Below are positions 165-61,606 of a stretch of DNA of 64,000 nt, one piece after another. The notes under the pieces are model-generated. The model was not told the origin of the DNA. It worked only from the letters and a program-made list of their open reading frames with translations, and searched no databases. How positions within the stretch are numbered: the first letter of the stretch is position 1; each line of letters starts with the position of its first letter. The stretch covers positions 8,179 to 72,178 of the forward strand of contig CAYPPQ010000005.1 in the NCBI GenBank assembly GCA_964412635.1, given 5' to 3'. This DNA comes from an uncultured Planctomycetia bacterium. Its GTDB lineage: Bacteria; Planctomycetota; UBA8108; UBA1146. Made by a program: the position numbers and the translations under genes.

Positions 165-1514
165 ATGAAACAGCAACGAGTCCATGCTCAGGCCAGATCC
201 GCAATTCTGGTCGCTAGCATCCTGGTCTTCATTCCAGCCGCTCTCTTTGCAGGGGGTGGTGGATACACCATGTCATTTACCGGTGGCTCCGTCGCGCAAG
301 GCGGGCTCACATCGGTAGACCTCAGTCTCACCCATTCAGCTCCCACCGGAGTTCAGGGCTTCTCCTTCGGTGTCTGTCATGATGACACGATGTTGACCCT
401 CGAGCCGCCTGGCACCTCTGCCGATTTCGATTACATGATCGACTGGTCAACCGCCATGGAGACCATCAAGAACGGCAGTGAGCCTGACTTTTTCCAGCAG
501 AACCTCGAGACGGGGGGCTGGACCGTCGGGTGCGTCATCTGCTTCACCTCCTGTGCCGTCATGGATGCCGGTTCCACCCCGATCGGAACCGCTTTTTATC
601 GGGCTGTCGGACCTGCGGGATCCACCACCAGCGTTGGACTGTGTAATGTTCTGGGACTGCCACCGGTCTCCAGCGTCGCCGTGGTACAGGGAGCCTCGAT
701 GCCGATGTCCAGCGACGATGCCACCGTGCAAATCATCGAACAACCACCCACCCTCTTTCACTTCTCTGCTCCGCAGAAACAGGTGAACTACGATCCCCTC
801 GATGGAATTGGCAACTTCTCGACCAAACTGACCATCACCGAGGATCCAGGGAACTCGACATACCCGACCAATACCCAGGGCTTCTCCATGAGCATCGTCG
901 GTGATTCTACATTCGTCACCCCCACCGCAGCTTCCACCACTGGCCCGGTCGCGGCGGCGAATCCTGCATTCGCCGAGACGATCCTCAGTGCCGAAGGATG
1001 GGCGATCGGTGTCGTCTATGCCTTCCAGGTGCCTGTTTACATCCAGTTTGCCGGAGAGACGGACGCCATGTCGATCTCGGGCTCGACGGTAGCATCGGCG
1101 CTGATCGGCGACGAAGTGGGTGTTTCGGTACCACTGAGCTGGCAGAGTGCCGGTTCTCCTCCCATCTACAACGTGGTGACCTCGAATAACGAGAGTGTCA
1201 TCCCGCTGCTGAGCAATGGTGGCCTCAACCTGAACCCTCAAAGTGTTCTCGACTACCTGCGAGGGGATGCCAACGGCGACGGCATCACCAACGTGGCCGA
1301 TGCAATCTGGGAGCTTCAGGAGATCTTCAACAACGGTCCCCAGGGAACCTGCTTCGACTCCAAGGATACTAACGGCGATAGCCTCTTCGATGTCGCTGAC
1401 CCGATCTGGCTCATCACCTACATCTTCAGCGGCGGAGCGGCCCCTCCGAGTCCCTTCCCGAACTGCGGAAATGTCGGAGATCCTCAGGACTGCAACAGCT
1501 ACAACGGTTGCTGA
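165..1514 (+). CDS. Secreted protein with two cohesin-like beta-sandwich repeats and a C-terminal tandem dockerin-like (EF-hand Ca-binding) module ending in a Cys-rich tail
   Basis: ATG at 165 with GGGAGA about 8 nt upstream. N-terminal signal peptide (ILVASILVFIPAALFA). Two internal repeats carry the cohesin-like motif (GVQGFSFGVCHDDTMLTL; QGFSMSIVGDSTFVTP; GGWTVGCV / EGWAIGVV). The C-terminus carries DANGDGITNVADAIWELQEIF and DTNGDSLFDVADPIWLITYIF dockerin-type repeats followed by PNCGNVGDPQDCNSYNGC-COOH. Confidence 0.7.
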   Translation: MKQQRVHAQARSAILVASILVFIPAALFAGGGGYTMSFTGGSVAQGGLTSVDLSLTHSAPTGVQGFSFGVCHDDTMLTLEPPGTSADFDYMIDWSTAMETIKNGSEPDFFQQNLETGGWTVGCVICFTSCAVMDAGSTPIGTAFYRAVGPAGSTTSVGLCNVLGLPPVSSVAVVQGASMPMSSDDATVQIIEQPPTLFHFSAPQKQVNYDPLDGIGNFSTKLTITEDPGNSTYPTNTQGFSMSIVGDSTFVTPTAASTTGPVAAANPAFAETILSAEGWAIGVVYAFQVPVYIQFAGETDAMSISGSTVASALIGDEVGVSVPLSWQSAGSPPIYNVVTSNNESVIPLLSNGGLNLNPQSVLDYLRGDANGDGITNVADAIWELQEIFNNGPQGTCFDSKDTNGDSLFDVADPIWLITYIFSGGAAPPSPFPNCGNVGDPQDCNSYNGC

Positions 1515-14092: not shown

Positions 14093-15073
14093 CTATTTCT
14101 GTTGTTCAGGCACACCCTTGATGGTGATCGCCGGAAATCCGGGAACCGGCCCCTTGGCCTTTCCTGGACTGGGTACCAGTGTGACACCCAGCATCGATGG
14201 ATGGAACCCCACCCCCAGCTCTGACAGGTCGAATCGCACCTCCCAGCGGGAACTACCCGGGATACTGGAGTCCTGAGTCCCGGTCCTCACCGAAGCCTCG
14301 GAGATCAGACCCGCCTCGATGCCATGAGGGTATGCAAGCCAGCGTACCGGAACCGCAGGGCGACGATCGTCCCCCTTGCGAGACCAGCGAACCACCCAGG
14401 TCCCCGAGCGCACCACTCCATCGGTCTCGGCGGGAATCCACTGCTGGGTCGATTGGAAGCCCCTCGCCCTGTGGAGAGGGATGGGATAACGGTCGGACCA
14501 TCTCTTCAAGATGGCTGCGCCCTTGCCGCGGATCGATGTCGTTCCACGGTTCACCTTCACGGTCGCTTCACTCTCACCGTAGATGCAGGTGCTCTTGCAA
14601 ACCTGCCAGATCACCTTCAATGCCAGTTCGACAGCAGCCGATTCTGAAGAGCTCTCCTTTGCCGGATGAATTCGATAGCGAAGCAAGAACGGTTCCTTGT
14701 AACCGATCGCCACCAGGTTTCCCGCTTCCACCATTCGCTGCGGCACCGGAAAGTCGGGACCGGTCACCGTCCACCTGTCTGGAAGGGTCCAGATCGCCTC
14801 CGGCGCATCGCCGCCATCTCGAGAAGAATGCCAGTACCCGTGCCAACCCTCCACCGGTCGGATCATCACTCCGACCTCGAAAGCAGTTCCCGGCTGGAAG
14901 GTCGTGACCTCGCTGAAGATCTCGATGGAGCAGGGATCTTGCTCCTCCAGTTCATCGAGAATTCCACCCTGCCCCGTCACCGGAACTGCCATCAGCATCA
15001 GGGAAAAGAGAAGTGCCCAGTGGAGGAACTTCGCCTCCGGCGAGGCATCGGTTTGGCAGGTTTCCATCTTCAT
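14093..15073 (-). CDS. Secreted protein, possibly DsbD N-terminal-domain-like (thiol:disulfide interchange partner of the downstream thioredoxin-fold gene)
   Basis: GGAG SD followed by ATG (MKMETCQ...). Signal peptide (HWALLFSLMLMAVPVTG). Motifs GWHGYWHSS and WQVCKSTCIYGE. Lies 30 bp upstream of the thioredoxin-fold gene on the same strand. Confidence 0.4.
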   Translation of the reverse strand: MKMETCQTDASPEAKFLHWALLFSLMLMAVPVTGQGGILDELEEQDPCSIEIFSEVTTFQPGTAFEVGVMIRPVEGWHGYWHSSRDGGDAPEAIWTLPDRWTVTGPDFPVPQRMVEAGNLVAIGYKEPFLLRYRIHPAKESSSESAAVELALKVIWQVCKSTCIYGESEATVKVNRGTTSIRGKGAAILKRWSDRYPIPLHRARGFQSTQQWIPAETDGVVRSGTWVVRWSRKGDDRRPAVPVRWLAYPHGIEAGLISEASVRTGTQDSSIPGSSRWEVRFDLSELGVGFHPSMLGVTLVPSPGKAKGPVPGFPAITIKGVPEQQK

Positions 15074-15186
15074 CTTGGAACTCCATCGGATATCGGATCT
15101 TTGGCGGCGCGAACTGCTCACACGAACTCCCGTACTGTAGCATGATCTGAAGATACTGGCTGTATCGTTGCCACGGTGGAGGATTG

Positions 15187-16002
15187 ATGTCACAAACCAG
15201 TTCCAGGCCACCAGCGATTCGCTGGCTCATCAAGTTGATCAGCCTCGGCTGTTTCTTGCTGGTGAGTGGCTGGGTACTGGAACAACGGATGATCTTCGTC
15301 CCCTGGCAAGAGTGGGCCACCCCCGCTCCCGCCGGTGCCCAGGTGGTCGAGTTCGAGAACGACCGGGGACAGCGCCTGTCCGCAACCTGGTTCCCTGCCG
15401 ACAGATCCTCTCCTGTCATCCTGTTGTGCCACGGCAACGGTGGAAACATCTCGCACCGTTTTTCCTTCGCCACCTTCTGGCAATCGCAGGGGTACTCGGT
15501 CCTGCTCTTTGACTACCGCGGCTTCGGCAAGTCGGAGGGATTCCCGACCGAGTCTGGCATCATCTCCGATTCACGTCATGCGCTGGGGATGGCTCGACAG
15601 CTGTCAGAAGGATCGATCATCGTCTACGGAAGAAGTCTCGGTTCGGTACCCGCCTGCGTACTGGCGGTCGAGGAGGATGTACAGGGACTCATCCTCGACT
15701 CGCCCCTACTCGACGGACCTTCCATCGCCAACGCCATGATGCCAGTGAAGGGACTGGGACAGTTGATGCGGTATCGACTCGACAACTCGGGAAGGATCGC
15801 CTCGATCACCTGTCCCCTGCTGATCATTCATGGCGATGCCGATCAACTCGTGCCCCATCAGCAGGGTGAAAGACTCCACCAACTGGCACCGCAACCGAAG
15901 CGTCTGGTGACGGTCCCCGGCGGCAGGCACAACGACTCCCGCAACATAGGAGTCGCACGCCAAGCCATCGGTGAATTCCTCACCGACCTCTCATCCAGGT
16001 GA
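15187..16002 (+). CDS. Alpha/beta-fold hydrolase (S9/BEM46-like)
   Basis: GGAGG SD followed by ATG. N-terminal TM segment. HGNGGN, nucleophile elbow GRSLGS and C-terminal HGDAD motifs. Confidence 0.8.
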   Translation: MSQTSSRPPAIRWLIKLISLGCFLLVSGWVLEQRMIFVPWQEWATPAPAGAQVVEFENDRGQRLSATWFPADRSSPVILLCHGNGGNISHRFSFATFWQSQGYSVLLFDYRGFGKSEGFPTESGIISDSRHALGMARQLSEGSIIVYGRSLGSVPACVLAVEEDVQGLILDSPLLDGPSIANAMMPVKGLGQLMRYRLDNSGRIASITCPLLIIHGDADQLVPHQQGERLHQLAPQPKRLVTVPGGRHNDSRNIGVARQAIGEFLTDLSSR

Positions 16003-16012
16003 CCGCAGTCCA

Positions 16013-16909
16013 CTACCAGACGTCCGCCGCCTTGACCCGCTCCGTCGCCCTCTGCTCATTGCCGCTCGGAGAGCATTCCAGCCCGATGTAATCGCGGTAG
16101 CCCAGATCCCATGCTTCCTTGAAGACCCGTGCATAGTTGATCTCGCCGGTGCCTGGCTCACGACGGCCCGGATTGTCCGCGAGTTGCAGGTAACCCACCT
16201 GGTCCCAACCCTCTCTCAATCGACGACACAGATCTCCCTCGGTGATCTGCATGTGATAGAGATCCCAGTTGATCTTCACCATCGGTGAGTTCACTTCACG
16301 GCAGATGCGAACGGTCGGCGCACTACCGTAGAGACAGTGGCCCTGGTGGTCGACACGGATATTCATCGGTTCGAGGATCAACATCACTCCTGCATCCTCC
16401 GCCATCGGAGCGACACGCTTGAGTCCAGTGATGATGTTCTCGTGCATCTGTTCCTGGGTCATGCCTGGCTGATCATTGCCGCCGATCACCGTCATCTTGC
16501 GAGCCTTGATCTTCTTGGCGGTCTCGATGGAGGCGGCGATCTCCTTCTCCATCCGGTCATGATTCTTCGGGTCATTCATCCCCGGGGTGAACCCCCAGGC
16601 GGTGAACTGGGCCACCTCGACGCCGGTTTCATCACACGCCTTGACGATCTCGTCGAGGTTCTTCCCCCTCCACGGCCACATCTCGACCGCCGGATAACCC
16701 AGCTTCGCTGCGGCACGGATGCGATCCTGGTGCGGGCCACCTCCCAGTCCCCACATCTCGATGTTGACCGCAAAGCGAGTCTTGCCCCACGGCAGGGGAA
16801 TCGCCCCGTCATCGCCATCGCTCGAGGTTGCTGCTCGGGCAGCCCCTGTCGTACTCAGTGCTGCAAGAGCAGCGGCGGATGTGAGAAAGTTGCGTCGATC
16901 GATGCTCAT
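16013..16909 (-). CDS. Sugar phosphate isomerase/epimerase (xylose isomerase-like TIM barrel) with Tat signal
   Basis: GGAAAGGA SD followed by ATG. Tat motif SIDRRNFLTSAAALAALS. TIM-barrel family motifs (VEMWPW..., HMQITEGDL). Confidence 0.75.
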   Translation of the reverse strand: MSIDRRNFLTSAAALAALSTTGAARAATSSDGDDGAIPLPWGKTRFAVNIEMWGLGGGPHQDRIRAAAKLGYPAVEMWPWRGKNLDEIVKACDETGVEVAQFTAWGFTPGMNDPKNHDRMEKEIAASIETAKKIKARKMTVIGGNDQPGMTQEQMHENIITGLKRVAPMAEDAGVMLILEPMNIRVDHQGHCLYGSAPTVRICREVNSPMVKINWDLYHMQITEGDLCRRLREGWDQVGYLQLADNPGRREPGTGEINYARVFKEAWDLGYRDYIGLECSPSGNEQRATERVKAADVW

Positions 16910-17005
16910 CGAAATATCCTTTCCGATCGCCTCAAAGACCTGCCGCTCTTGCGATCGTTCCATGGAAGTGATTCACGGTCCCGATCGGGGGCGGAAGCTC
17001 TCCGA

Positions 17006-17788
17006 TCAGAACTGGTAGTCGCGCCCAGGCTCCATCACCTCGACACCTGGAAGTTCCATCGCTGCCAGTTCCTTCACCGTTTCTTCACGCTGATTCGGCT
17101 TGAGATGCACGGCGAGAAACTTCAGACGATCGGGATCGGCTGCCTTGGCACGATCGGCCCGGAACGTCTCCGGAGTCAGATGTTTCGAAACATCAGCGAG
17201 CCACTGCAGGCGATTGGGAAAGGACGCTTCCAGCACCACCGTCGTCAGATTTTTTGTCTCGTCACATCGTTTCCAGATCTCCTCGGTAGGTCCGGTATCG
17301 GTAACGATGGCACAGGAACTGCCATCCCCCTCGACGATGTAGGCCACCGTATCGACGATGTGGTCGACGGGGATCGGCGTGATCCGCATTCCATCCACTT
17401 CGATGGCAACTCGCTCCTCGATCTCCTGCAGTTCCAGCAGATCGAGACCGGTCTCTGCGCTGATCCGGAAGAAGTCAGGCCAGTGTCGATCGTTGAAGAT
17501 GTCCTCACGAAGGCTCGTGGCCGTCGCTCTGGTCGCGTAGATGGTCACCTTTTGCTTCGATGTGGAGTCCTCTCCGAAGTGTGCATCGAGAAACATAGGC
17601 AAGCTCGCCACGTGATCGCTATGAGAATGGGTGATGAAAACATGCTTCACCTGCAGTTGCTGCTGGAGAGCAGCATGGAATCCGATGCTCCCTGCATCGA
17701 TGCAGATGTTGTCGCCGATCAGGTAGGAACTGAGTAGTTGATCGGGGGTATCTCCCGCCACTGTCGATGGAACTAGCTGGAGTCGCAA
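17006..17788 (-). CDS. MBL-fold class II 3',5'-cyclic-nucleotide phosphodiesterase (CpdP-like)
   Basis: ITHSHSDHVASLPMFLDAH matches the class II cAMP-PDE signature HxHxDH[LIVM]x[GS]. TTG start 4 nt after the stop of the upstream cNMP-binding gene. Confidence 0.6.
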   Translation of the reverse strand: MRLQLVPSTVAGDTPDQLLSSYLIGDNICIDAGSIGFHAALQQQLQVKHVFITHSHSDHVASLPMFLDAHFGEDSTSKQKVTIYATRATATSLREDIFNDRHWPDFFRISAETGLDLLELQEIEERVAIEVDGMRITPIPVDHIVDTVAYIVEGDGSSCAIVTDTGPTEEIWKRCDETKNLTTVVLEASFPNRLQWLADVSKHLTPETFRADRAKAADPDRLKFLAVHLKPNQREETVKELAAMELPGVEVMEPGRDYQF

Positions 17789-17792
17789 GGTA

Positions 17793-18236
17793 TCAGCTCA
17801 CCCTTCTGTCATCGCTCGATTGCAACCGCATGGCGATGAGCCGCGCCAACGCCAGGACCATTCGATATACGGTGCGATCACCCATGTCGAGGAGTTCCCT
17901 GAAGCGAGCGATGGAAAAGGAGCGGAGTCGAGATCGAGAAACCGCCACGACGCTGGCGCTGTGAGGAGTATCGGAGACGAGGCTCATCTCTCCGAAGGAA
18001 CTGAGGTCGGAGAGTCGTGCCAGCACGGTAGGGTTTTCACCTTCCGTCTTGATCACATCGAGAGTCCCCTGGGCAACGATGAAGAAGTGTCCTGGAATAT
18101 CCCCTTCACCGATGACGACATCTCCCGCCTCGACGATTCTCTCCTCGGAGTAGCCGAGCAAGGCACCGATCTCTTCCGGTTGAAGGCCATCGAAGAGGGG
18201 CACCGATGAATAGCGTTCATATCTCAGTGCATCCAT
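17793..18236 (-). CDS. Cyclic nucleotide-binding (CAP effector-domain) protein, no DNA-binding domain
   Basis: cNMP-binding beta-roll with the FGEMSL...RSASVVA phosphate-binding cassette. 147 aa. No HTH domain. Confidence 0.8.
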   Translation of the reverse strand: MDALRYERYSSVPLFDGLQPEEIGALLGYSEERIVEAGDVVIGEGDIPGHFFIVAQGTLDVIKTEGENPTVLARLSDLSSFGEMSLVSDTPHSASVVAVSRSRLRSFSIARFRELLDMGDRTVYRMVLALARLIAMRLQSSDDRRVS

Positions 18237-18379
18237 GGTCGCTCATCCTTCCGCCGCACCCCCTGGAGAAAACTACTCGTGCAACAGGAATACGCTACAC
18301 CGCTCCCTCCTCCCCGACAACGGGGAGGGAAGGAGGAGCTGGTTCAACAGCAGAGCAGGAGGTTCCCGGACCGATCGAT

Positions 18380-19264
18380 TCAGGGACACCCGGGAAAAAC
18401 GACACAATCGAGGGCGTCGCCGGTGGGATCGAATCCACACGCCGGATAGGGAGGCGCTGGTGACGGAGTCCCGGCACAGAAAATTGTACACAACACCGTC
18501 ACCGCATCGGTGATGTTGATGGTGCCCGTGTCGTTGGCGTCGAGGGCATCGAGGCAATCGGATGGGGTGGCATTGAAGAGGTAATCGAGGACCTGGATTC
18601 CATCGACGAGGTCGAGGGATCCGTCTCCACTGGCATCCCCGCGGATCAGCATCGGGCCGTCGTGGGGGATGAGGGTCACAGTTCCATCGACGGTGGTAGG
18701 CACGAAACTGGCCCCGTCGAGGACCAGCACGTTCTCCACCGGTGGTTCTCCAAGAGTGTTGATGAAGGAGAGGCTGGTGACGGTGGCCGTGGTAGCTCCG
18801 GTGAGAGGACCATCCAGAAGCTGATAATCGACGGTACACATCGGCGTCTCCACCTCGAAGGTCACGGTCCAGCCTCCGACGAAACTCAGTACCACGCCCT
18901 GGGTAACGCCCTCCGGGTAGAAATTCACCTGATCGAAATCGATCTCTTCCCCCATCGGCTCCGGCATCGTCGTCGTCAAATCGGTTGCTAGCATCAGGGT
19001 CGGGTCATTTCCAAGATCGATGGAATACCCGGCACAGGGAGCAAATGTCGCCCCGGAGATCTGCTGCACCGTCACATCGGCACTGAAGCCGAAGGCAGCG
19101 GGGTTCGCCGCCGCATAGTCGACACTCGCTCCGGTGACACGCAGTTCGAAGTCGGAGCCAACCTGGCCATTCAAGTGGTTACCTGGAAGCCCCAGGATCA
19201 CCATCAAGGCCACCAGCGGAACCAACTGGAGAGAACTGTAAACGCTGAATTTCTTGTTCATCAT
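18380..19264 (-). CDS. Secreted protein with a cohesin-like module and a C-terminal dockerin-like module
   Basis: AAGGGAG SD followed by ATG-ATG (MMNKKF...), 14 nt after the stop of the upstream gene. Signal peptide. Cohesin-like motifs (AAFGFSADVTV, GGWTVTFEV). C-terminus carries RGDASGDGSLDLVDGIQVLDYLF and DANDTGTINITDAVTVLCTIF followed by the tail ACGFDPTGDALDCVVFPGCP-COOH. Confidence 0.65.
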   Translation of the reverse strand: MMNKKFSVYSSLQLVPLVALMVILGLPGNHLNGQVGSDFELRVTGASVDYAAANPAAFGFSADVTVQQISGATFAPCAGYSIDLGNDPTLMLATDLTTTMPEPMGEEIDFDQVNFYPEGVTQGVVLSFVGGWTVTFEVETPMCTVDYQLLDGPLTGATTATVTSLSFINTLGEPPVENVLVLDGASFVPTTVDGTVTLIPHDGPMLIRGDASGDGSLDLVDGIQVLDYLFNATPSDCLDALDANDTGTINITDAVTVLCTIFCAGTPSPAPPYPACGFDPTGDALDCVVFPGCP

Positions 19265-19278
19265 GCTCAGCTCCCTTT

Positions 19279-22272
19279 CTATGGACACGGGGTATTACTC
19301 GACGGAGTCGGGTCTCCACCTGCCACATCGAAGGGTGGAGGAGGTGGCGGCGAATCGTCGATGAAGAGGTAGTTCAACACGAAGATCGGATCTCCGATAT
19401 CGATCAGGTTGTCGTCGTTGGCATCGAGGCGCGCCTCGCACTCCGGCCTCTCCAGTGGAGGCTGTCCGGCGGGGGTGATCACCATGCCGAGGATCGAGAT
19501 GGCATCGCCGATGTCGATCAGGTTGTCTTCATTGGCATCGGCCCGGATGAAGGAACCGGTGGCCTGGATCTCGTACACCGTGCCATCGGTGTTTCCAGCC
19601 ACCACGAAGTTCTCCCCATCGAAGAGGATTCCCCCGGGGTCGTCGATGGCCGCCAGGCTGATCCCCTCGCCGACCTGGGTCGCCACTCCGCCGGAGACGG
19701 TCACCTCGATGATCTCGAGGCTGCCATCCGGCTTGACGCTGGTGATGTAGAGCGGCAACGGCCCGCAGCCAACGAAACCGGTGGTGGGACAGCGTCCAGA
19801 GGTGCATCCCTTCTGCTGCGCTCCCTCATTGGGGTGCTCGAAGGAACTACCGGAATCGATGCCACCATCCCCTTCATGGGCTATGCCGTAGATCTCACAG
19901 GTGTCGGGACCGGTGACATACAGCGTCTCCGTCTCGGGATTGAAGCCCATCCCCCCCGACTTCCCCTCGATGGCACCGGGGAGGAACTTGTTGCCGCCAC
20001 CGGGTGCCCACGGAGATGGGTTGTAGACAAAGTAATTGCGGAGGAATTCACCCTGACGTGTCATCTCCATCAGGTGCATCTGGCCACCGGAATTGCCGTT
20101 GCCCACCACCAGCGAACCGTTGCCCGCATCTCCGTCAGGGATGTAGGCGATGCCGGTCACCGGCACGTTCTCCTCGAAGGGACTCGGCACCACCGCCAGC
20201 ACCTGGAAATCCTCGCCGAGGGCGTAGATCTGCCCGTTGAGTGAATCGGTGGCGTAGTAGAACACCTCTCCGCTGCCCTCGGGAGGCTCTGGAAACACCG
20301 CGGTGATGTCGTAGATCTCCGTCAACATGCCAACGCTGCCGGGGATCTCGATGGGGGTCTCCGTCTCCGTCTCGCCACTTCCCACGACGATGGTGGTCTG
20401 CAGACAGCCACTGCCACCGCCATCCAGGATGACGATACCAGTGTAGGTGTGAGTCCCCTCCGGCACATCGGTATCGATCCAGGAGAACTCGCCGGCAGGA
20501 ACCTCCACGGGATTCCCCTCGACCCCGTCGCTGGTGCGGGTGAGCTGGTAGAAATCGGGGACATTCCCCGCCGGGTCACTCCAGGTCCATGACACCTCGA
20601 CGAAGTGATTGTCGTCGATGATCACGCTGGAGAGACTGTTCATCGGCGGGATGTAGAGGGGATCCACATCGGATGGGTCACTACTGGCATCGTAGGGATT
20701 CGATCCCTGCGCCAGTTCATCGATGTTGGAGTACTGGTCGCCGTCGTCATCGTCATCGGGGAAGGCGTGGGCCACCGGCACCGCGGCGGAGTGCTCCGTC
20801 AGCAGGATCGTCTCGCCGGGGAAGGTGAGGTCGACCCCGGTGGCGCTGCCATCGGCGTTGTAGGATGTGAGGGTACCGTCGCCGCTTCCCGGCTCCTGGC
20901 CGGCGATCCACAGCTGTCGATCTCCATCCCAGGCGATGTCATCGACACCGCGGGGGTGGGTGATGACGGGTCCCAGGAGCAGCGCATCATTGAAATCGTA
21001 ATCGCCCATCAATACCTGGTTGGCGGAGGGATTGAGGATGGCCAGACGATCGACGCGGAACTCCCCCCCCCCGATGATGGTTCCCACCATGCGGGTCGGG
21101 GCGATGGCGGGCGGCAGTTCGCAGCTCGAGGCCATCGATCCATCGGCCATGCGCCTCTCGATGCGATCGGTGAAGAGCAGGAACACCGATCCGTCCGGAC
21201 CCGCTACCAGGTCGCGAATGGTATTTCCCGAACCCATGCTGACGATCACCACCGGACTGCCATCGGACTGGATGCGAGCCAGGGTGGTGCCCACGGCAAT
21301 CCAGCTGGTGTTTCCGGTTCCGACCGCATAGTGGAAGGAATCGCCCGGATTCCCCACCGAGATTCCCAACGGCTGCGCCCCTCCCAGGACTCCATCTTCG
21401 GGAGAATCACCGGCACCATCTCCGCCGTACAGCACCGTTCCATCGGGGTGCAGTACCTGGATGCCGTCAGGGGCGATGACGAAGACCCCATCCCCTCCCA
21501 GCGGTCCGAGTCCGATGGGATTCGGTCCGGTCGAGCAGACGATCTTCGGCTGGGGGTTGATCCCGACGCGGCACAGCGTCTGGGTTTCCGCCATCAGGAT
21601 CCACGTCTCACCACGGGCGTTGACCAGCAGATCGGTCGGGGCACCATCGGCGGTAACCTCCGATTCGACCAGTACTCCATCGGGACTGAAGAAGGAAGCG
21701 GAGCCATCGAAGGCGACGCGCACCCGGTTGGTCGGAGTTCCGTCGTTGATCGGGGTCAAGATGGCCACTCCCCCGGAAATGACATCGGGGATGATCTCCG
21801 AAGCATCGGGGAGGGCGAACACCACATCGGTCACCGGGTCGCCAACGCTTCCGGGAGTCACGGTGGCAAAGGTTCCCTGCGCCGAGGAGTTCGCCTCGTA
21901 ACCGGCCACTGCCACCAGACGCGGGCCACCGGCAGCGATCACTCCCTGCAGTTCGAAGTCGACCAGGACGCCCATCGCCAGCCCTTCGGGGCCAGAGCTG
22001 GTGCCGACGAAATCCGCCACCACAGGTCCTGCATACTCGATGAAGATGGGGGTCAGGCCCCCGGGAGCGTGAATCAGCCCGAAGGAGAACGCCACGATGT
22101 CGACATCGTTCTGGATCAGTACCGCAAGGGGTACCGTCGATCCGGCGACCGCTGCTGCGCTCTCCACCGAGACACTATTTTGAGCCGTCGCGGGGGAACC
22201 GAGACAGACCATCCACAGGAACAGAAGAATCGCGCAAGTCCGACGACTTCGGCGTTGTCTCTGCACATTCAT
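19279..22272 (-). CDS. Large secreted protein with a cohesin-like N-terminus, beta-propeller (NHL/YVTN-like) and FN3-like modules, and a C-terminal dockerin-like module
   Basis: ATG with GGGGAGGG SD. Signal peptide (ILLFLWMVCLGSPATA). Cohesin-like AGSTVPLAVLIQNDVDIVAFSFGLIHAPGGL. Repeated propeller blades. C-terminus carries DANEDNLIDIGDAISIL and DANDDNLIDIGDPIFVLNYLF followed by a poly-Pro stretch and ...GGDPTPSSNTPCP-COOH. Confidence 0.7.
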   Translation of the reverse strand: MNVQRQRRSRRTCAILLFLWMVCLGSPATAQNSVSVESAAAVAGSTVPLAVLIQNDVDIVAFSFGLIHAPGGLTPIFIEYAGPVVADFVGTSSGPEGLAMGVLVDFELQGVIAAGGPRLVAVAGYEANSSAQGTFATVTPGSVGDPVTDVVFALPDASEIIPDVISGGVAILTPINDGTPTNRVRVAFDGSASFFSPDGVLVESEVTADGAPTDLLVNARGETWILMAETQTLCRVGINPQPKIVCSTGPNPIGLGPLGGDGVFVIAPDGIQVLHPDGTVLYGGDGAGDSPEDGVLGGAQPLGISVGNPGDSFHYAVGTGNTSWIAVGTTLARIQSDGSPVVIVSMGSGNTIRDLVAGPDGSVFLLFTDRIERRMADGSMASSCELPPAIAPTRMVGTIIGGGEFRVDRLAILNPSANQVLMGDYDFNDALLLGPVITHPRGVDDIAWDGDRQLWIAGQEPGSGDGTLTSYNADGSATGVDLTFPGETILLTEHSAAVPVAHAFPDDDDDGDQYSNIDELAQGSNPYDASSDPSDVDPLYIPPMNSLSSVIIDDNHFVEVSWTWSDPAGNVPDFYQLTRTSDGVEGNPVEVPAGEFSWIDTDVPEGTHTYTGIVILDGGGSGCLQTTIVVGSGETETETPIEIPGSVGMLTEIYDITAVFPEPPEGSGEVFYYATDSLNGQIYALGEDFQVLAVVPSPFEENVPVTGIAYIPDGDAGNGSLVVGNGNSGGQMHLMEMTRQGEFLRNYFVYNPSPWAPGGGNKFLPGAIEGKSGGMGFNPETETLYVTGPDTCEIYGIAHEGDGGIDSGSSFEHPNEGAQQKGCTSGRCPTTGFVGCGPLPLYITSVKPDGSLEIIEVTVSGGVATQVGEGISLAAIDDPGGILFDGENFVVAGNTDGTVYEIQATGSFIRADANEDNLIDIGDAISILGMVITPAGQPPLERPECEARLDANDDNLIDIGDPIFVLNYLFIDDSPPPPPPFDVAGGDPTPSSNTPCP

Positions 22273-22516
22273 CTTTGCACCCTCCCCGGGGTCTCCGACC
22301 CCGATTCAAGAGTTCTTGTATCCACGTTTTCCGAGGGTGAATTTCCGGGAATCTGGCGACATCCACGCACGATCAAGCGCGCCAGGATCATGGAAATCCA
22401 GCGTTCACAACGGTTTGGCGGAAATACCCTCAACACTTCATTGTACGGTGAGATCCGGATCGAGAAAGGACCCGGACCGATAACCCGATATTCCCTGCAA
22501 AATTGCCGGAAAAAGG

Positions 22517-25500
22517 CTATTCCTCGTCGATTCTGCCCAGCCGCGCCCGCAGGAATCGCCGGCGATCTACCGACCTCTCGATCCGATTGGCCCGCTCCTC
22601 CACCGCCTCCATCGCCCTTTCCTCCCACACCTCCCTCTCCTTCGACCCCTCAGCCTCGAGGGAGGCGCGGGCGCTGAGGACCATGTCGAGGGGAGCCCCC
22701 AGCGGCAGATCGGTTTCCTCGAGGCGAGGCATCAGCAGGGCCAGGGCCCGATCACGATCGCTGCACACCACGGCGATGGAGGCGCACAGGAGGCATCGTT
22801 TCCGCGAGAAGGCGAGCCCGCCCAGCTTGCTGATCAGTTGCTGCCCCTGGTCGATCTCCTCTTCCTCCAGATTGTTGCCGAGCAGATGGGTATGGCGCGC
22901 TCGCAGGGTGTACCACAGTGCATCGAGGTCGGGGTCACGCTCCTGCTCCGATTCGACCTCTTCCTTCAGTGACAACAGATCGATGCTTCTGGGATCCTCC
23001 CCCGTCGAAAGCCGGTTCATCTCGTGGCGGATCCGCCCCTCCCGCAGCAGGAGCTCATCGCCGATCTCCTTCGCCACCTTCAGAGCCTGGTCGTTGGCGC
23101 GGCTCGCCTCCTGCCAGTCCCCCATGACGGCGTGAATCTCCACCAGGTCGAGATGACAGCGAGTCACCCCTCCCAGGTCGCCGATGGCCTGGCGCACCTC
23201 CACCGAACGCTGCAGTGCATCGACCGCCACATCGAAACGCCCCAGCAGCACCTCCACCTCCGCCAGGTTTCGATAATTTCGACCGAGACCGCGACGGTTC
23301 TGCAGCAAGCGGAAGGTCTCGATGGCCTGGCGGTACATCTGTGCAGCATCTTCCAGCTTTCCGTGGAAGAAACCTACATTGGCGAGTCCAACGCGACAGA
23401 TCGTTTCCATGTCGAGATGGCCGAACTGGTGAAAGATCTCGATGGCCTTCTCGAAGCAATCTTGAGCGGTGTCGATCTCCCCGAAGGGATCGATGCGGGT
23501 GTAGAGATTTCCCAGATTGCCGAGGATTCGCGCCTCCCACAGTTCATCCTCTCGCTCCTCGGCGATGGCGATGCCTCGCTGGTACTCCGCCACCGCCTCG
23601 GGACCTCGTCCCTGCTTCTGTAATCCCAGTGCCAGAAGGATCTGGAAATGCTGGGCCAGTTCGCTGGCCCCGGATTGTTCGACGGCACCTCGCAGCTGCT
23701 CGAGGATCGCCAGGGAGCCGTGGGCATCTCCCCGTCGATCCGAGATTTGGGCAAGCAGCAATTGGCGCTGCAGGTGCACCTCTTCCTGGGCTGCATCCAC
23801 CTGCTCCAGGTACTTCTCGCAGGCGTCCTGATCGCCCAGCTTGATGCAGACACGAGCGGCAGAGATGAGGTACTGCCCCAGCTCTGACGCCTCCAGGGTC
23901 GCCCCCCCCTCGAGCACCGCATCGATTTCTTCGACCAGCTGCCGCCCCTCGACGTAGCGACCTTGCGATTCCCTCCGGCTCAGTGCCCGGAGCAGATGGG
24001 GGAGTGCTTCCTGCCCCTGTCCCGCATCCCGCAGTAATCGACCGATGGGGCCCGCCCGCTCCGGCACTTCCCCTTCCAGTTCGATGAGGACCCTTGCCAG
24101 CTCCCGGCGGCGGCGCAGTGCCGCACGACGGCCTCGCCCCTCGAAGATGGAGAGGACCGCTGCCCGGGCCGGTTCGGTACGGAAGCGGTAGTGGGTCAGA
24201 TCGGTTCCCACCGCCTCGCCGAGCCCATCGGTCTCGAAACGATCGAGGGTGTCATCGAGCAGGTCCGCATCGTCGAAGAGACGCTCCAGCACCTCCACCG
24301 GGATGTCCCCCTCGATGAGGGCGGCGGTCTCGAGGATCTGCGCCTGGTCTTCGGAGAAGCGGCCGATCGCCTCCTCGTACAGATCACTTCTTCGCGCCGG
24401 CAACTGCTCGGAGAAATGCTCGCTGGCAGGGAGCGGTTCCTTCAGCTGCCACTTCCCCTCCGCCACCGGATCGAAGATGCCGTGGCCGGTGGGACCGAGG
24501 GTTCTGACCAGGTCGATGGCGAAACCGATGTTGCCGGCGGCTCGCTCCGCCAGAACCGCCGCCAGCCACGGAAGATCGTCGAGGTGGGGGGCACCGGGGT
24601 AAGCGAGATCGAGCATCCGTTCCACCGAGGTGCGCTCGGTGGCGGGCACGTCCACCACCAGCACCGGGATCTCCGAGCCGAAGCCTTCGGGGCGGTCGGT
24701 GGATTTCTGCTCCTCCCGCAGGCTGCACACCGCAAAGAGCACACCGGCACGATCCTGGACGCAGCGGGCGATCAAACCGGAGAGCAACCGCGCCGACTGG
24801 GCATCCGCCTGTTCCAGATCATCGATGGCGATGAGCAGTGGAGCTTCCCGCGCCGCCGAGGTGACCAGCCGATACCACCAGTAGGAGCGCATCTGATCGG
24901 AGGTCTGTTCCAGCGAACCCTCCCCCGACAGCTCTTCGAGGAAGAAGGTGATGGCCGCGGCATCTTCCCCCAGCAACTCCTCCAGCACCTGCGAGGCGTG
25001 CTCGCGCACATCGGCAGCATCGGTCTCGATGAAGGAGACCCCCAGCAGATCCCTGAGCAGGTCGTGGAAACCCTTGTACGGCTGACCGGCGGCACCGCGG
25101 AAGGTGCCGTGCAGATCTCGCACCCCTTGCAGACGCTTGCTCGCCGCCAGCGCCGCCAGCAGGGCACCGGTTCGTTGCCCCTCGGCACCGCCGATGACGA
25201 CGGTCGCCCCCGGTCGCTGGAGCGGATCGAGATGGGTGGCCATGTCGGCGACCAGATCTTCCCGCTCCACCAGCGGCAACGGATCCGCCGCACGGATGCG
25301 GATCGGTCCCTCCGGCTCGACGGGAATCGGTTTCGGATCGAAGGAGGCGATCGTCTCCACCATCGGTGGGGCGATGGTGCCGGGGTGGAGCGGTTCTGCT
25401 CCCACAAGCCAGACACGGTGATCGCCGGGATCGACCTGGTACTCCTTGAAATCGGGATTGACCCAGTTCCAGCCGGTCGCCTCCGGTAACGACAATCGAC

Positions 25501-26530
25501 AGGAGGTCGCCACCGGCGATCTGTTCGACAGCACCACGCGGATCCACAGGATCTCTCCCATCGAGATCTCGCTGCGGACCGCCTCGCCCCGCACCGACAG
25601 CCGGCCGGTGACCACCTCGGCACTGCTGCCATCGGTCGCCTCGATACTCAGGTTCTCGGTGAAGATCGAATCGAGCAGTGCGCTGCCATCGCGTCGGGTG
25701 CGCTCCCCCGATGCAAAATCGAGGAACTCGGTACGACGCTCCCGGGGAGTTCGATCGAAGAGGTACGCATTGCCGTCGTGGAAGTGCAGCATCTCCGGCA
25801 ACATCACCAGCATCTCACCGCTGGAGCGGGCCAGGTAACACTCCCCCGGATCCAGATCCGGATCGTCGATGACCGGCGACGTGCTGCTGCCGCTGACACC
25901 GCTGAGCGATAGTGCGACTCCCTCCTCCTCGAGGGAACTCACGAACAGCTGCTGATCGAGCTGAGCCAGCTGCTCCATCAAGGCCACGGTGGAGGCCTCG
26001 AACAGCGGAGCGACCTTCTGGTAGTGATCGTCGGCGAGAAATCCTGCGTGGCCGATGAAATCGTTTCGATAGGGCGGGAGATGCTCGATGGCATCCTTCC
26101 ACGCCAGTTCCTTGCCGCTGCCGCGGCCGGCGATTTCACGGACCAGTTGGCCGTGTTCGAGGCGCGGTGTGCACAGCAACTCTCGCAGGTCCTCGAGAAC
26201 TCCGAGAGCCCCCGCCCCGGATGACAGCATGTCGATCTCCCGGGAGCCGTGACGCAGAAGCACCTCGACCCATGAACCGAAGGAGGGTCGCTTCATGAAG
26301 TTCTGGACCCGCTTGAGCCGGTCCACCGGCAGTCTCATGCGCGACCGAGCGGTCAGCAGCAGGATCCCCTGCCAGCGGGTGATCGCCTCGAGGCTGGCGA
26401 ATGCTGCGGCGTGGCGTGAGCGGGGGTCGTCGCCGGTGGAATGGAGTGCTTCCAGGACCCGTGCCAGAGGACGGGGAAGGAGCTCATTACTGCAATCTGA
26501 TTCGGGGCGATCCACCGACACCCCCTCCAA
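22517..26530 (-). CDS. Giant STAND-like NTPase (degenerate Walker A) with an uncharacterised about 430-aa N-terminal domain and a C-terminal TPR array (Avs/NLR-like layout)
   Basis: AAA_16/STAND-like core. P-loop position reads VVIGGAEGQRTGA, where Lys is replaced by Arg and one Gly is missing. Canonical Walker B LLIAIDDLEQAD. Followed by about 600 aa of TPR repeats (e.g. GNLGNLYTRIDPFGEIDTAQDCFEKAIEIF). Start uncertain: the track TTG is at 26530, and a GTG 15 nt downstream has a GGAGG SD. Confidence 0.65.
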   Translation of the reverse strand: MEGVSVDRPESDCSNELLPRPLARVLEALHSTGDDPRSRHAAAFASLEAITRWQGILLLTARSRMRLPVDRLKRVQNFMKRPSFGSWVEVLLRHGSREIDMLSSGAGALGVLEDLRELLCTPRLEHGQLVREIAGRGSGKELAWKDAIEHLPPYRNDFIGHAGFLADDHYQKVAPLFEASTVALMEQLAQLDQQLFVSSLEEEGVALSLSGVSGSSTSPVIDDPDLDPGECYLARSSGEMLVMLPEMLHFHDGNAYLFDRTPRERRTEFLDFASGERTRRDGSALLDSIFTENLSIEATDGSSAEVVTGRLSVRGEAVRSEISMGEILWIRVVLSNRSPVATSCRLSLPEATGWNWVNPDFKEYQVDPGDHRVWLVGAEPLHPGTIAPPMVETIASFDPKPIPVEPEGPIRIRAADPLPLVEREDLVADMATHLDPLQRPGATVVIGGAEGQRTGALLAALAASKRLQGVRDLHGTFRGAAGQPYKGFHDLLRDLLGVSFIETDAADVREHASQVLEELLGEDAAAITFFLEELSGEGSLEQTSDQMRSYWWYRLVTSAAREAPLLIAIDDLEQADAQSARLLSGLIARCVQDRAGVLFAVCSLREEQKSTDRPEGFGSEIPVLVVDVPATERTSVERMLDLAYPGAPHLDDLPWLAAVLAERAAGNIGFAIDLVRTLGPTGHGIFDPVAEGKWQLKEPLPASEHFSEQLPARRSDLYEEAIGRFSEDQAQILETAALIEGDIPVEVLERLFDDADLLDDTLDRFETDGLGEAVGTDLTHYRFRTEPARAAVLSIFEGRGRRAALRRRRELARVLIELEGEVPERAGPIGRLLRDAGQGQEALPHLLRALSRRESQGRYVEGRQLVEEIDAVLEGGATLEASELGQYLISAARVCIKLGDQDACEKYLEQVDAAQEEVHLQRQLLLAQISDRRGDAHGSLAILEQLRGAVEQSGASELAQHFQILLALGLQKQGRGPEAVAEYQRGIAIAEEREDELWEARILGNLGNLYTRIDPFGEIDTAQDCFEKAIEIFHQFGHLDMETICRVGLANVGFFHGKLEDAAQMYRQAIETFRLLQNRRGLGRNYRNLAEVEVLLGRFDVAVDALQRSVEVRQAIGDLGGVTRCHLDLVEIHAVMGDWQEASRANDQALKVAKEIGDELLLREGRIRHEMNRLSTGEDPRSIDLLSLKEEVESEQERDPDLDALWYTLRARHTHLLGNNLEEEEIDQGQQLISKLGGLAFSRKRCLLCASIAVVCSDRDRALALLMPRLEETDLPLGAPLDMVLSARASLEAEGSKEREVWEERAMEAVEERANRIERSVDRRRFLRARLGRIDEE

Positions 26531-26674
26531 TCAGGTAGACCAGGTTCAAGAACAGTCCGTAGAGGAGATCATAGGCTCCAGAAGGGCTGGATGGATCCTC
26601 TTGCCTCCGATGGATCCCCCCATCAAGATGAAATTCTACGGATCGGAGTAGATTTCCGGTCGATGGAGGCACCG

Positions 26675-27088: not shown

Positions 27089-27145
27089 AAGCGCTGGAGG
27101 CTCGGGGTTTGACCGGGGCAGCGACAGATCTCGCCAGTGATCGTG

Positions 27146-60034: not shown

Positions 60035-61606
60035 TCAGGGGCAGTCGGTGTAGGTCAAGCACTCCAGCGGCTCCGCTGTGGTTGGATCGGTTCCACAACT
60101 GGTGGGTGCCGGCAACGGACTTGCCGGAGATCCGAACATCCAGGAGAGCACTGCGACGGCATCCGCAACATCGATGACCCCATCGTCGTTCCCGTCGCAG
60201 GCGTCCTCGCATTCCAGCGTCGGCGGTACCGGAACGGGAAACAGTGAGATCAACAAGTTGACCGCGTCGGCGAGGTTGATCACTCCGTCGGTGTTGCAAT
60301 CACCACGTACGAACTGCGCCGCAGCGGGCAATTCGCTCCGCAGCGTCGGTCGATCAAAGGGAAAGGTCTCGTTGGCCACCCGTGGATCGGTCAGCCCGTT
60401 GGTGAGGAACTCGACCACGGCCGGTTGCCACTGCAAAGGTAAAGACATGTCGCTGTAGACGGTAGATGCGCCTGGAGAACCTCCGGAGCTGGGGATCGGA
60501 GACTGATCGGCGCTGAACTGGGTGTGGCCGCTTAGCGGATCAAGAAGGGGCCATGCAGGGGCGTTGTAGTAATCGATGGCATCCTGCACACCGGTCACCC
60601 ATCCCACATGCATCTGGGCCGGTCGCAGACTCGCATTCCTGAGAGTTGGCGTCTTGAAACTGCCCCGGTGTGCCACATCACCGGTGACATTGTATCTCCC
60701 GAGGTCATCAGAGGACGGGCGAAGGCCGATGTTGTAGAACTCGTTGTCGGTGAAGAGCGGCAAGGTGTGGCAACTGAAACACGCAGTACTTCCCTCCAGA
60801 ACATTGAACCCCGCCTGTTGTTGCTGGGTCATCGTACCGAGGTCGAAGGGCGTCTGGTCGGGGATCAGCGTCCGTTCGTAGGTGGCGATGGCAAAGGCGA
60901 TTCGCTCGGCGGTGATCTCCGCAGATCCGAAGGCAGCTTCGAACAGGTCGGGGTAGTCGATGCTCCCCACCAGGGTTGCAGCAACATCCGCAGGCAAGTC
61001 GGTGCCGAGTGCAAGCGGTACCACAAGCTCCATCTTCGCCACCAGATCATCCCAGGTGCGACCTTCGAAGGCCATCTCCACGTCGCTGAGAAGTGGTCCG
61101 ACCGCCTGACTCTCCAGAGCTCCTCCGCTGGCGATGCTCACCTCTCCCGTCTGTGGATTGATGAATGTGCCGCTGGCGCGGCCATCCCAGAACATCTCCG
61201 GAGCCCATTGCGATCCGATGACAGGCTGAGCAGAGCGGCCTGTCACCTGAACCTCGAAGTCGAAGAGAGGATCCAGGAGCGGATTGCCCAGTAGATCTGC
61301 ACGGGCGACCCCCGGGGAACCGACGATGTCATCGTCGGTCCCGAACAACCCATCGGGACCGGGGTGCGTACCGAGCCTGGGATCAGCCCCGCCGGCGTTC
61401 GGCCGATGACAGGTACCGCAGGCGACGGTGTCATCGCTCGAGAGCTGTTCATCCCAGAACAGGATCTTGCCGAGGATACGCTTCTCTTCCGTCGGAGGAT
61501 TCTCTGCGGGAAAGGGAACGGGAGGGAGTTGCCCTACGACCGCTGTCGAGCAAATCAGACATTGGACTACAACCAGGATGGCTACAAACCTCGCACTCAA
61601 TTGCAT
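60035..61606 (-). CDS. Di-haem cytochrome c peroxidase (CCP/MauG family) fused to a C-terminal dockerin-like module
   Basis: GAGGGAGAG SD followed by ATG (MQLSARFVAILVV, signal). ILGKILFWDEQLSSDDTVACGTCHRP (haem 1) and ACFSCHTLPLFTDNEFYNIGLRP (haem 2). C-terminus carries RGDCNTDGVINLADAVNLLISLF and DGNDDGVIDVADAVAVLSWMF followed by SCGTDPTTAEPLECLTYTDCP-COOH. Confidence 0.85.
   Translation of the reverse strand: MQLSARFVAILVVVQCLICSTAVVGQLPPVPFPAENPPTEEKRILGKILFWDEQLSSDDTVACGTCHRPNAGGADPRLGTHPGPDGLFGTDDDIVGSPGVARADLLGNPLLDPLFDFEVQVTGRSAQPVIGSQWAPEMFWDGRASGTFINPQTGEVSIASGGALESQAVGPLLSDVEMAFEGRTWDDLVAKMELVVPLALGTDLPADVAATLVGSIDYPDLFEAAFGSAEITAERIAFAIATYERTLIPDQTPFDLGTMTQQQQAGFNVLEGSTACFSCHTLPLFTDNEFYNIGLRPSSDDLGRYNVTGDVAHRGSFKTPTLRNASLRPAQMHVGWVTGVQDAIDYYNAPAWPLLDPLSGHTQFSADQSPIPSSGGSPGASTVYSDMSLPLQWQPAVVEFLTNGLTDPRVANETFPFDRPTLRSELPAAAQFVRGDCNTDGVINLADAVNLLISLFPVPVPPTLECEDACDGNDDGVIDVADAVAVLSWMFGSPASPLPAPTSCGTDPTTAEPLECLTYTDCP

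Follow-up and report, generated by a model that had tools for sequence, protein, structure and literature searches.

A conserved gene pair for secreted proteins with cohesin- and dockerin-type modules in marine Planctomycetota: a candidate non-cellulosomal assembly

Introduction

Can secreted proteins that each carry both a cohesin-like and a dockerin-like module clip together outside a cellulosome? Plant-fiber degraders assemble their cellulosomes from these plug-and-socket modules. The pairing of cohesins with dockerins is among the strongest and most widely engineered of protein-protein interactions, and it is understood almost only in the cellulosomes of anaerobic Firmicutes. The envelope and exoproteome of planctomycetes are poorly understood. 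The question is raised by a locus in a 64-kb window, by which we mean the whole stretch of DNA analyzed, whose host belongs to an abundant, uncultured, marine planctomycete clade.

Results

Layout and conservation of the gene pair

Two ORFs lie side by side at the coordinates given in the preliminary description of this DNA, but on the minus strand. The first, g2 (19279..22272), encodes a 997-aa secreted multidomain protein with a cohesin-like module, a propeller-like region, a thrombospondin-type-3 (TSP3)-like motif, an Fn3-like module, a second propeller-like region and a dockerin-type module; it carries no name in any source. The second, g1 (18380..19264), encodes a 294-aa secreted, adaptor-like protein with one cohesin and one dockerin. 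Between the TAG stop of g2 (19279-19281) and the ATG-ATG that starts g1 at 19264 is a 14-nt spacer (19265..19278, minus strand), in which a Shine-Dalgarno-like motif, GGGAG, precedes the start. This gap amounts to tight spacing, with comparably short gaps of 19-22 nt in loci L001 and L002, and translational coupling of the genes is putative. The two are probably co-transcribed; in a promoter and terminator scan, hairpins and terminator-like sites bracket the pair at a frequency no higher than in shuffled sequence.

We identified 27 relatives of g1 and 15 full-length relatives of g2, every one of the latter from marine Planctomycetota MAGs. A survey of gene-pair conservation, proposed in the preliminary description, found a g1-type gene directly downstream of g2 in 19/19 informative species-representative genomes, all of them marine Planctomycetota MAGs. 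Synteny extends over the whole block in which the pair sits, so the conservation of the pair may owe as much to common descent within a single clade as to a functional link. Cyclic-nucleotide signaling genes (cyclase, cNMP-binding and PDE neighbors) always flank the pair. We considered and discarded a defense-system reading of these neighbors: PADLOC returned generic PycC and cNMP-domain matches, and none for g1 or g2.

Two further genes of the window belong with the pair. On the plus strand, g3 (165..1514) encodes a 449-aa secreted protein with cohesin-like modules at nt 252-749 and 750-1250 and a dockerin-type module at nt 1251-1511 (HMM E 1e-37). On the minus strand, g4 (60035..61606) encodes a di-haem cytochrome c peroxidase/MauG-like protein with a C-terminal dockerin-type module at nt 60038-60313 (HMM E 3e-42); it is the redox enzyme noted earlier at this position, as the Pfam CCP_MauG match confirms (E 5.6e-34). 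A profile search found no cohesin-like module in g4, which is a candidate for dockerin-tagged enzyme cargo. Signal-peptide-like N-termini can be read in all four proteins, in which we found neither an anchor nor a signal for the cell surface. Each cohesin-bearing protein of the window also carries a dockerin; within the 64 kb we detected neither an anchor to the membrane or cell wall nor an anchoring cohesin protein or scaffoldin that lacks a dockerin, and the GH95, sulfatase and SASA esterase genes of the window are without a dockerin.

A dockerin variant with a Cys-containing tail

The C-terminal dockerin-type module comprises about 90 residues, with two Ca-loop/helix repeats followed by a Pro-rich, Cys-containing tail. 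By a custom HMM, it occurs in exactly four of the 609 six-frame ORFs of the window, g1 to g4 (E 1e-37 to 3e-42), the best non-member reaching E 0.29, which bears out the tandem module ascribed earlier to the C-termini of g1, g2 and g3. In g1 it occupies aa 206-294 (18383..18649, minus strand) and has a 4-Cys Pro-rich tail; in g2 it occupies aa 908-997 (19282..19551, minus strand; HMM E 2.3e-38) and has a 2-Cys tail. In hhalign, the comparison of the two scores 99.3%. Tandem segments of ~22 residues with 12-residue EF-hand-like loops are present in g1-g4 (alignment A4), and all eight loops, read from the sequence, match D-x-[NSD]-x-D-[GNS]-x-x-x-x-x-D; they are predicted to bind Ca.

The AlphaFold model of g1 (pLDDT 69.6) places helices at residues 219-231 and 251-262 of the module, whose fold is similar to that of solved dockerins. 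Profile A1 matches solved PDB dockerins at E 3.6e-5, and the top PDB match of profile A2, built on g2, is the dockerin 4dh2_B (E 0.015). Against Pfam Dockerin_1 (PF00404, gathering score 22.9), g1 and g4 reach a sub-threshold 14.0 and 14.3 bits (E 0.048 for g4), and g2 and g3 have no match; the same model matches 12/13 homologues of g1. Some relatives are named 'dockerin type I domain-containing protein' by NCBI, and in an NCBIfam scan no cohesin or dockerin model matched any of g1-g4 above threshold.

Across 360 copies of the module, D16 and D49 are ~100% conserved, and Cys33 and Cys82 occur in 100% and 96%, respectively. An invariant Cys between the two Ca-binding loop-helix repeats and a tail of the form PPxPFPxCGxDPTxDxLxC..CP mark a variant that is Planctomycetota-typical and very common; it counts 47,008 cluster representatives and often alternates with cohesins in Doc-Coh-Doc arrays. 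It has tens of thousands of metagenome relatives, and the PDB matches include no solved structure of it. In the wider family, many proteins have 2-7 copies, and the domains joined to the module are numerous and unrelated, IPT/TIG, LamG, PKD and FG-GAP among them. The tail is part of the domain, since 163 of the 360 copies lie at internal or N-terminal positions and include it; one or two disulfide bonds between its Cys residues probably clasp it to the module.

Cohesin-like modules

The cohesin-fold module of g1 spans aa 38-201 (18662..19153, minus strand). In the model, it has the fold of solved cohesins, a nine-stranded β-sandwich (jelly roll) of ~140-170 aa, and the fold matches are specific, generic Ig-like adhesin domains falling clearly behind; the window copies are 8-15% identical to characterized cohesins in structural alignments. 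As modeled, g1 is a cohesin fold and a dockerin fold on one secreted polypeptide. The two modules of g3 score 98.4% and 97.4% in hhalign with the g1 cohesin (HMM 4e-15 and 3e-14), and 7/8 PDB matches of profile A6, of g3/g1 type, are cohesins, the best being ScaC (E 0.017).

The N-terminal cohesin-like module of g2, aa 32-182 (21727..22179, minus strand), scores 93.6% in hhalign with the g1 cohesin profile. All eight PDB matches of its profile, A3, are cohesins (E 0.022-0.27), and Pfam Cohesin is the sole family matched in the N-termini of g2 orthologues (7/11, best E 3.8e-4); the g2 N-terminus of the window itself has no such match. AlphaFold returned a low-confidence model of this module with 11 orthologues (pLDDT 34). 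Cohesin-like modules had been proposed for all three proteins, and this stands for g1 by structure and for both modules of g3 by profile homology to g1; for g2 the evidence comes from profiles and is weaker.

Pfam Cohesin (PF00963, gathering score 24.1 bits) matches no window copy; it is cleared at 37.6 bits by a relative from the Doc-Coh family, P0057. Among 72 multi-dockerin relatives, 66 match Dockerin_1 (best 8.9e-18) and 27 match Cohesin (best 8.1e-8). The window copies themselves stay below the gathering scores, for which, in the case of the dockerin, the matches across the family compensate.

The most conserved cohesin-like motif, QG[FWY]S[FL]G..HD..L, falls on strand 3 of cohesins in the alignments, which would make it part of the dockerin-binding 8-3-6-5 strand face. 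The g1 motif picked out earlier, AAFGFSADVTV, has to be replaced: it aligns with the preceding strand, and the true g1 equivalent of 'FSFGLIHAPGGL' / 'QGFSFGVCHDD' is 'CAGYSIDLGNDPTLML'. Cohesins of the g1/g3 type and the g2 type are only ~21% identical, suggesting more than one specificity. A link within proteins between cohesin subtype (g1- or g2-like) and dockerin tail (4- or 2-Cys) was set aside, the counts (5/6 vs 2/13 independent representatives) being suggestive, not significant.

Other regions of g2

A putative signal peptide, read from the sequence, covers aa 1-31 (22180..22272, minus strand; ...SPATA|QN), and g2 orthologues retain its hydrophobic core and, after it, an A-x-A-type site. 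The first propeller-like region, aa 183-505 (20758..21726, minus strand), has blade-like motifs and weak internal repeats. The second, aa 637-907 (19552..20364, minus strand), contains the motif H..G.G...F.HP..G..QKGCT..C, invariant in alignment A2. Internal-repeat detection in the central regions gave weak signals, and orthologues match TEN_NHL/NHL, SGL and Reg_prop weakly; the large β-propeller proposed for g2 is plausible.

Between these regions lie two smaller elements. An Asp-rich, thrombospondin-type-3-like Ca-binding motif, DDDDDGDQYSNIDELAQGSNPYD, is found at aa 506-540 (20653..20757, minus strand), with weak NCBIfam matches on aa 504-539 and with residues D508, D510, D512, Y514, N516 and E519 invariant in g2 orthologues. 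Further downstream is a putative Fn3-like module, aa 545-636 (20365..20640, minus strand), with a W..W, Y.Y.V pattern; Fn3_arc is weakly matched in two g2 orthologues.

Discussion

Proposed assembly and alternatives

The reading we favor, and consider reasonably probable, is a non-cellulosomal cohesin-dockerin assembly in which g1 is a ScaC-like adaptor. Modules of this kind on non-cellulase parts suggest that these proteins probably join up in a complex outside the cell, and the systematic co-occurrence of cohesin and dockerin in relatives is the pattern expected of partner modules. Each of the Sec-exported proteins g1, g2 and g3 would join one or two divergent yet genuine cohesin-family β-sandwiches with one dockerin-family module. 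Once the proteins are exported and oxidatively folded, their Ca-loaded dockerins would plug into the cohesins of partners to form a multiprotein complex, with g2 as its large functional subunit, bearing two propeller-like regions. The small adaptor g1, which shares its signal peptide-Coh-Doc layout with R. flavefaciens ScaC, may link g2 to another cohesin-bearing protein or recruit further dockerin-tagged cargo such as g4. That the modules pair, and which binds which, we infer, as we do the location (surface, extracellular or periplasm) and the biological role.

The strongest alternative, which we nevertheless think unlikely, is a scaffoldin-less self-polymer: were the cohesin and dockerin of the same or paired polypeptides cognate, g1, g2 and g3 could daisy-chain head to tail, or g2 and g1 alternate in a copolymer, to give fibers or a lattice on the cell. 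The absence of a dockerin-free scaffoldin within 64 kb, the presence of a dockerin on all cohesin-bearing window proteins and the frequency of Doc-Coh-Doc-Coh-Doc arrays in the family fit such chaining. The ~21% identity of the two cohesin types speaks against it, and the characterized adaptors with both modules (ScaA, ScaB and R. flavefaciens ScaC) have non-self specificities and are not known to bind themselves.

Somewhat less probable again is that the modules do not pair, the dockerin being a Ca-dependent, disulfide-stabilized anchor or stabilizer that binds another envelope component (glycan or protein) and the cohesin-like modules being Ig-like spacers or ligand-binding domains. The low identity of the window copies to characterized cohesins, the sub-threshold sequence matches and the many unrelated domains joined to the dockerin module are in keeping with this. 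The two modules are, however, systematically found together in single proteins, the cohesin fold matches are set clearly apart from Ig-like adhesin domains, and the non-cellulosomal pairs studied so far, from C. perfringens and A. fulgidus, do bind.

We rate as equally doubtful a bolder extension, in which a phylum-wide kit of disulfide-clasped dockerins and cohesins, most parts carrying both, would assemble itself, with no scaffoldin, into a protein lattice outside the cell or in the periplasm; here g2-g1 would be a two-component block, and the lattice would display propellers and redox enzymes (g4), possibly under control of the flanking cyclic-nucleotide genes.

It is very improbable that the C-terminal module serves as a signal for sorting or secretion, in the manner of PEP-CTERM or T9SS C-terminal domains, instead of as an interaction module. 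Its place at the extreme C-terminus of 4/4 window proteins, with a conserved Cys-Pro end, invites the idea, which we reject because 163/360 complete copies are internal or N-terminal; many proteins also have several copies, the module has a dockerin fold, and no NCBIfam sorting-domain model matches. Chance resemblance of low-complexity Asp/Gly-rich motifs and generic β-rich sequence, to which the lack of above-threshold Pfam matches in the window might point, is scarcely credible and is refuted by the profile, structure, conservation and family evidence.

If the modules of the favored assembly bind, they would provide new orthogonal, disulfide-stabilized cohesin-dockerin pairs that work in oxic seawater, and a handle on how planctomycetes organize their envelope and exoproteome.

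Comparison with known systems

The classical cellulosome (Clostridium/Acetivibrio/Ruminococcus, types I-III) has the same two folds, the duplicated Ca-binding F-hand of the dockerin and a modular assembly logic. Its multi-cohesin scaffoldin with a CBM, its dockerins on plant-cell-wall CAZymes and its SLH or sortase anchor are missing here: there were no CBM or SLH matches, and the dockerin carriers are a di-haem peroxidase and other non-CAZyme proteins. The non-cellulosomal cohesin/dockerin proteins of Archaeoglobus fulgidus (PDB 2xdh) and the toxin and glycosidase complexes of Clostridium perfringens (2vo8, 2w1n, 2jh2, 2o4e) come from other phyla and have other partner domains, and their relationship to g1-g4 is detectable in fold only, not in sequence. 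Closest in architecture is R. flavefaciens ScaC, which like g1 has a signal peptide, one cohesin and one dockerin; identity is only ~7-10%, however, a Firmicute is compared with a Gram-negative-type planctomycete, the context of g1 is not a cellulosome, and none of the solved dockerins matched has the Cys/Pro-rich tail of the g1 dockerin.

The preliminary description was right that no function is established for such assemblies in Planctomycetota, though for freshwater Planctomycetes (Nemodlikiaceae; Andrei et al. 2019, PMC6461901) there is an earlier hypothesis of a non-cellulosomal 'planctosome' that includes Doc+Coh adaptors. As proposed, it comprises an LTD/P-domain anchoring protein with a cohesin, a Doc-HYR-Coh adaptor and dockerin-tagged M12B/M14 peptidases (PMC6461901). 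Shared with the g1-g4 system are planctomycete, non-cellulosomal cohesins and dockerins, an adaptor with both modules, thrombospondin-type-3 repeats or a TSP3-like motif, and non-CAZyme dockerin cargo, and both proposals are purely computational. The two differ in lineage, marine against freshwater, and in cargo, here a di-haem peroxidase and propeller-like regions; Pfam found no lamin-tail, P-domain, hyaline-repeat or M12B/M14 peptidase domain in g1-g4. Since non-cellulosomal cohesin-dockerin systems, including a planctomycete one, are already published, the g1-g4 locus is a new variant and no new principle; what it adds is a conserved pair of unannotated two-module proteins and a dockerin variant with a Cys pair and a Pro-rich tail.

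Domain architecture of the g2-g1 pair and its relatives

Two adjacent open reading frames on the minus strand, g2 (19279-22272, 997 aa) and g1 (18380-19264, 294 aa), were found as the preliminary description had placed them, with the ATG-ATG start of g1 coming 14 nt after the TAG stop of g2 and a GGGAG motif inside the spacer. Their C-terminal dockerin-type module recurs in g3 (165-1514, 449 aa) and g4 (60035-61606, 523 aa), the latter being the redox enzyme that had been claimed, a di-haem peroxidase matching Pfam CCP_MauG with an E value of 5.6e-34. No source gives a name for any of the four. Each begins with a basic and a hydrophobic stretch resembling a Sec signal peptide.

An HMM made from the final ~90 residues of g1-g4 picks out only these proteins among the 609 six-frame ORFs of the window (E values 1e-37 to 3e-42, runner-up 0.29). 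Each module has two D-x-N-x-D-G-x-x-x-x-x-D loops, with a hydrophobic helix after every loop. In a direct Pfam scan for Dockerin_1, g1 and g4 scored 14 bits against a gathering threshold of 22.9, and g2 and g3 gave no match. Though these scores are sub-threshold, a profile combining g1 with 12 homologues revealed homology to the solved dockerins 2y3n_B (E 3.6e-5) and 5m2o_B (E 7.5e-5), bearing out the earlier assignment of dockerin-like C-termini. The g2 dockerin aligns with that of g1 at an hhalign probability of 99.3%. A 20-sequence profile of the module, run against 1.84 billion proteins, matched 47,008 cluster-50 representatives with E≤1e-3, of which 26,362 had E≤1e-10. Because some are classical multi-copy dockerins, these counts set an upper limit for the tailed variant described below. 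In a set of 5.8 billion proteins, the named dockerin matches, several called 'dockerin type I domain-containing protein', were all from Planctomycetes/Planctomycetota bar one, labelled as a Poseidoniia archaeon MAG.

The g1 model forms a β-sandwich over residues 38-201, with pLDDT mostly 70-92, and an independent Foldseek search places cohesins in all of the first 45 ranks (E 1.3e-9, target TM-score reaching 0.82). Both g3 modules align globally with the g1 cohesin profile, at hhalign probabilities of 98.4% and 97.4%, and an HMM search of the window recovered them at 4e-15 and 3e-14. Against the PDB, a profile of g3/g1-type modules matched eight chains, seven of them cohesins, with ScaC of R. 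flavefaciens at the top (E 0.017). The cohesin-like modules proposed earlier thus stand for g1, by model fold and Foldseek, and for g3, by profile homology; the evidence for g2 comes from profiles and is weaker, its N-terminal module being modelled poorly (pLDDT 34). This candidate module aligns with the g1 cohesin profile at an hhalign probability of 93.6%, and a profile of the g2 N-terminus gave eight PDB matches, every one a cohesin (E 0.022-0.27), with alignments falling exactly on the motif flagged in the preliminary description. Pfam Cohesin was the sole family matched by the N-termini of g2 orthologues (7/11, best E 3.8e-4). No window ORF other than g1-g3 carried a cohesin-like module in the HMM search, giving four cohesin-like and four dockerin modules across four proteins. 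The g1/g3-type and g2-type cohesins share ~21% identity, and this low value hints at more than one specificity. The two subtypes are connected by the metagenomic relative P0188, in which a single region is matched by both HMMs at ~1e-13.

In the centre of g2, a region with NHL/SGL-like blade motifs (aa ~183-505) is followed by a thrombospondin-type-3-like motif rich in Asp (aa 506-540), by an Fn3-like module (aa 545-636) and then by another blade-like region (aa 637-907), in which the motif H..G.G...F.HP..G..QKGCT..C is invariant. Both blade-like regions are plausible candidates for β-propeller folds.

Across the family, many of the best 149 representatives of the dockerin profile alternate dockerins with ~165-aa spacers, some with extra cohesin-dockerin units, and these spacers match our cohesin HMMs. 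Among 72 alternating-array proteins, 66 match Pfam Dockerin_1 (best 8.9e-18) and 27 match Pfam Cohesin (best 8.1e-8). P0057, for example, scores above the gathering thresholds of both families. Such systematic co-occurrence is the pattern that partner modules would show. Many metagenomic relatives within P0043-P0191 (for example P0068, P0118 and P0043) are Doc-Coh-Doc-Coh-Doc chains or carry up to seven tailed dockerins per chain, and P0014 and P0015 begin and end with a dockerin.

A cysteine-containing, tailed dockerin variant

Over 360 complete module copies, a cysteine at position 33, between the two repeats, is 100% conserved and a tail cysteine at position 82 is 96% conserved, with a second pair at positions 71 and 88 in about half. 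The tail follows the consensus LFxGGxxPPxPFPx(C)GxDPTxDxLxC(xxxxxCP). Of the 360 copies, 163 lie inside the chain or at its N-terminus, which makes the tail a component of the dockerin domain rather than a C-terminal sorting signal. We infer one or two disulfide clasps, the predicted pairs being Cys33-Cys82 and, optionally, Cys71-Cys88; such clasps would fit an exported protein, and the g1 model is of low confidence for the tail. A DsbD_N-domain protein (14093-15211, minus strand) is encoded near g1 and g2, within the region of conserved synteny, and in the related locus L001 a redoxin gene comes after it, which places a thiol-disulfide exchange function close to the genes for these modules.

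Conservation and genomic context

We found 27 relatives of g1 and 15 of g2, whose sources are without exception marine metagenomes or Planctomycetota MAGs, and a scan of GTDB species representatives gave 20 g2 loci. A g1-type gene lies directly downstream of g2 in 19/19 loci reaching far enough, and likewise in L001-L004; this partner has a single cohesin in close relatives and two in more distant ones. At 42-53% g2 identity, it comprises two tandem cohesin-like modules and a dockerin (L002, 11207-12859; L014, L017, L018, L022 and L023), with an extra 128-aa ORF called between the two genes in L002.

The pair resides in a minus-strand block (16013-28969) that is syntenic in L001-L024. Its order is a class III nucleotide cyclase with TPRs (27146-28969), Cpn10, a 1337-aa AAA_16/TPR_MalT STAND-like protein (22517-26530), g2, g1, a stand-alone 147-aa cNMP-binding protein (17793-18236), an MBL/class-II-PDE-like protein (17006-17788) and an AP_endonuc_2 protein (16013-16963). 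Since synteny extends over the whole block, the pair's conservation, though real, cannot count as independent evidence that the two genes are functionally coupled. Cyclic-nucleotide signalling is a possible role for the block, for which PADLOC returned only generic PycC/cNMP matches. The L003 copy of the MBL/PDE-like protein has an Apyc1-like Pfam match. One locus, L007 (QNYK01000027.1), is titled 'Bacillota bacterium MAG 7' yet holds the full planctomycete block, and P0206, a dockerin fragment, bears the label 'Candidatus Poseidoniia archaeon'; the two cases probably reflect errors of binning or labelling.

Adjoining g4, a 335-aa protein (58904-59911, minus strand) with a signal-peptide-like N-terminus and an HExxH-like HEYTH motif matched no Pfam family and may be an uncharacterised secreted metallopeptidase, judging by these motifs. 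A 708-aa ORF (8214-10340, minus strand) had no Pfam family at E≤1e-5. The remaining window has the usual planctomycete content, including GH95, sulfatase, PSCyt/DUF1501, FG-GAP/ASPIC and SASA esterase genes.

Proposed assembly and comparison with known systems

In the proposed mechanism, g1-g4 would be exported and oxidatively folded, whereupon dockerins would plug into cohesins in a Ca-dependent manner, forming a multiprotein complex in which g1 would act as adaptor to both g2 and cargo that bears a dockerin, such as g4. By analogy, we favour this adaptor role since g1 shares the architecture of the R. flavefaciens ScaC adaptor, which ranks high among its matches in both structure and sequence. 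The assembly may instead be a scaffoldin-less polymer, as first proposed, rather than a hierarchical complex; adaptors carrying both cohesin and dockerin are not known to bind themselves. No anchor was detected within the window.

The system is not a cellulosome, because its cargo are not CAZymes, the CBM and SLH modules of cellulosomes are both absent, and the CAZyme-like genes of the window lack dockerins. Dockerin expansion has been reported in kelp-associated Planctomycetes (PMC5264255). Conceptually, the nearest system is the hypothetical 'planctosome' of freshwater Nemodlikiaceae, which already includes TSP3 repeats and an adaptor bearing both modules (PMC6461901); its domains and cargo differ from those described here. 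The g2-g1 pair conserved in a marine clade, the Pro-tailed dockerin variant with its putative Cys clasps, the scale on which that variant occurs, and the prevalence of dockerin-cohesin alternation all appear to be new.
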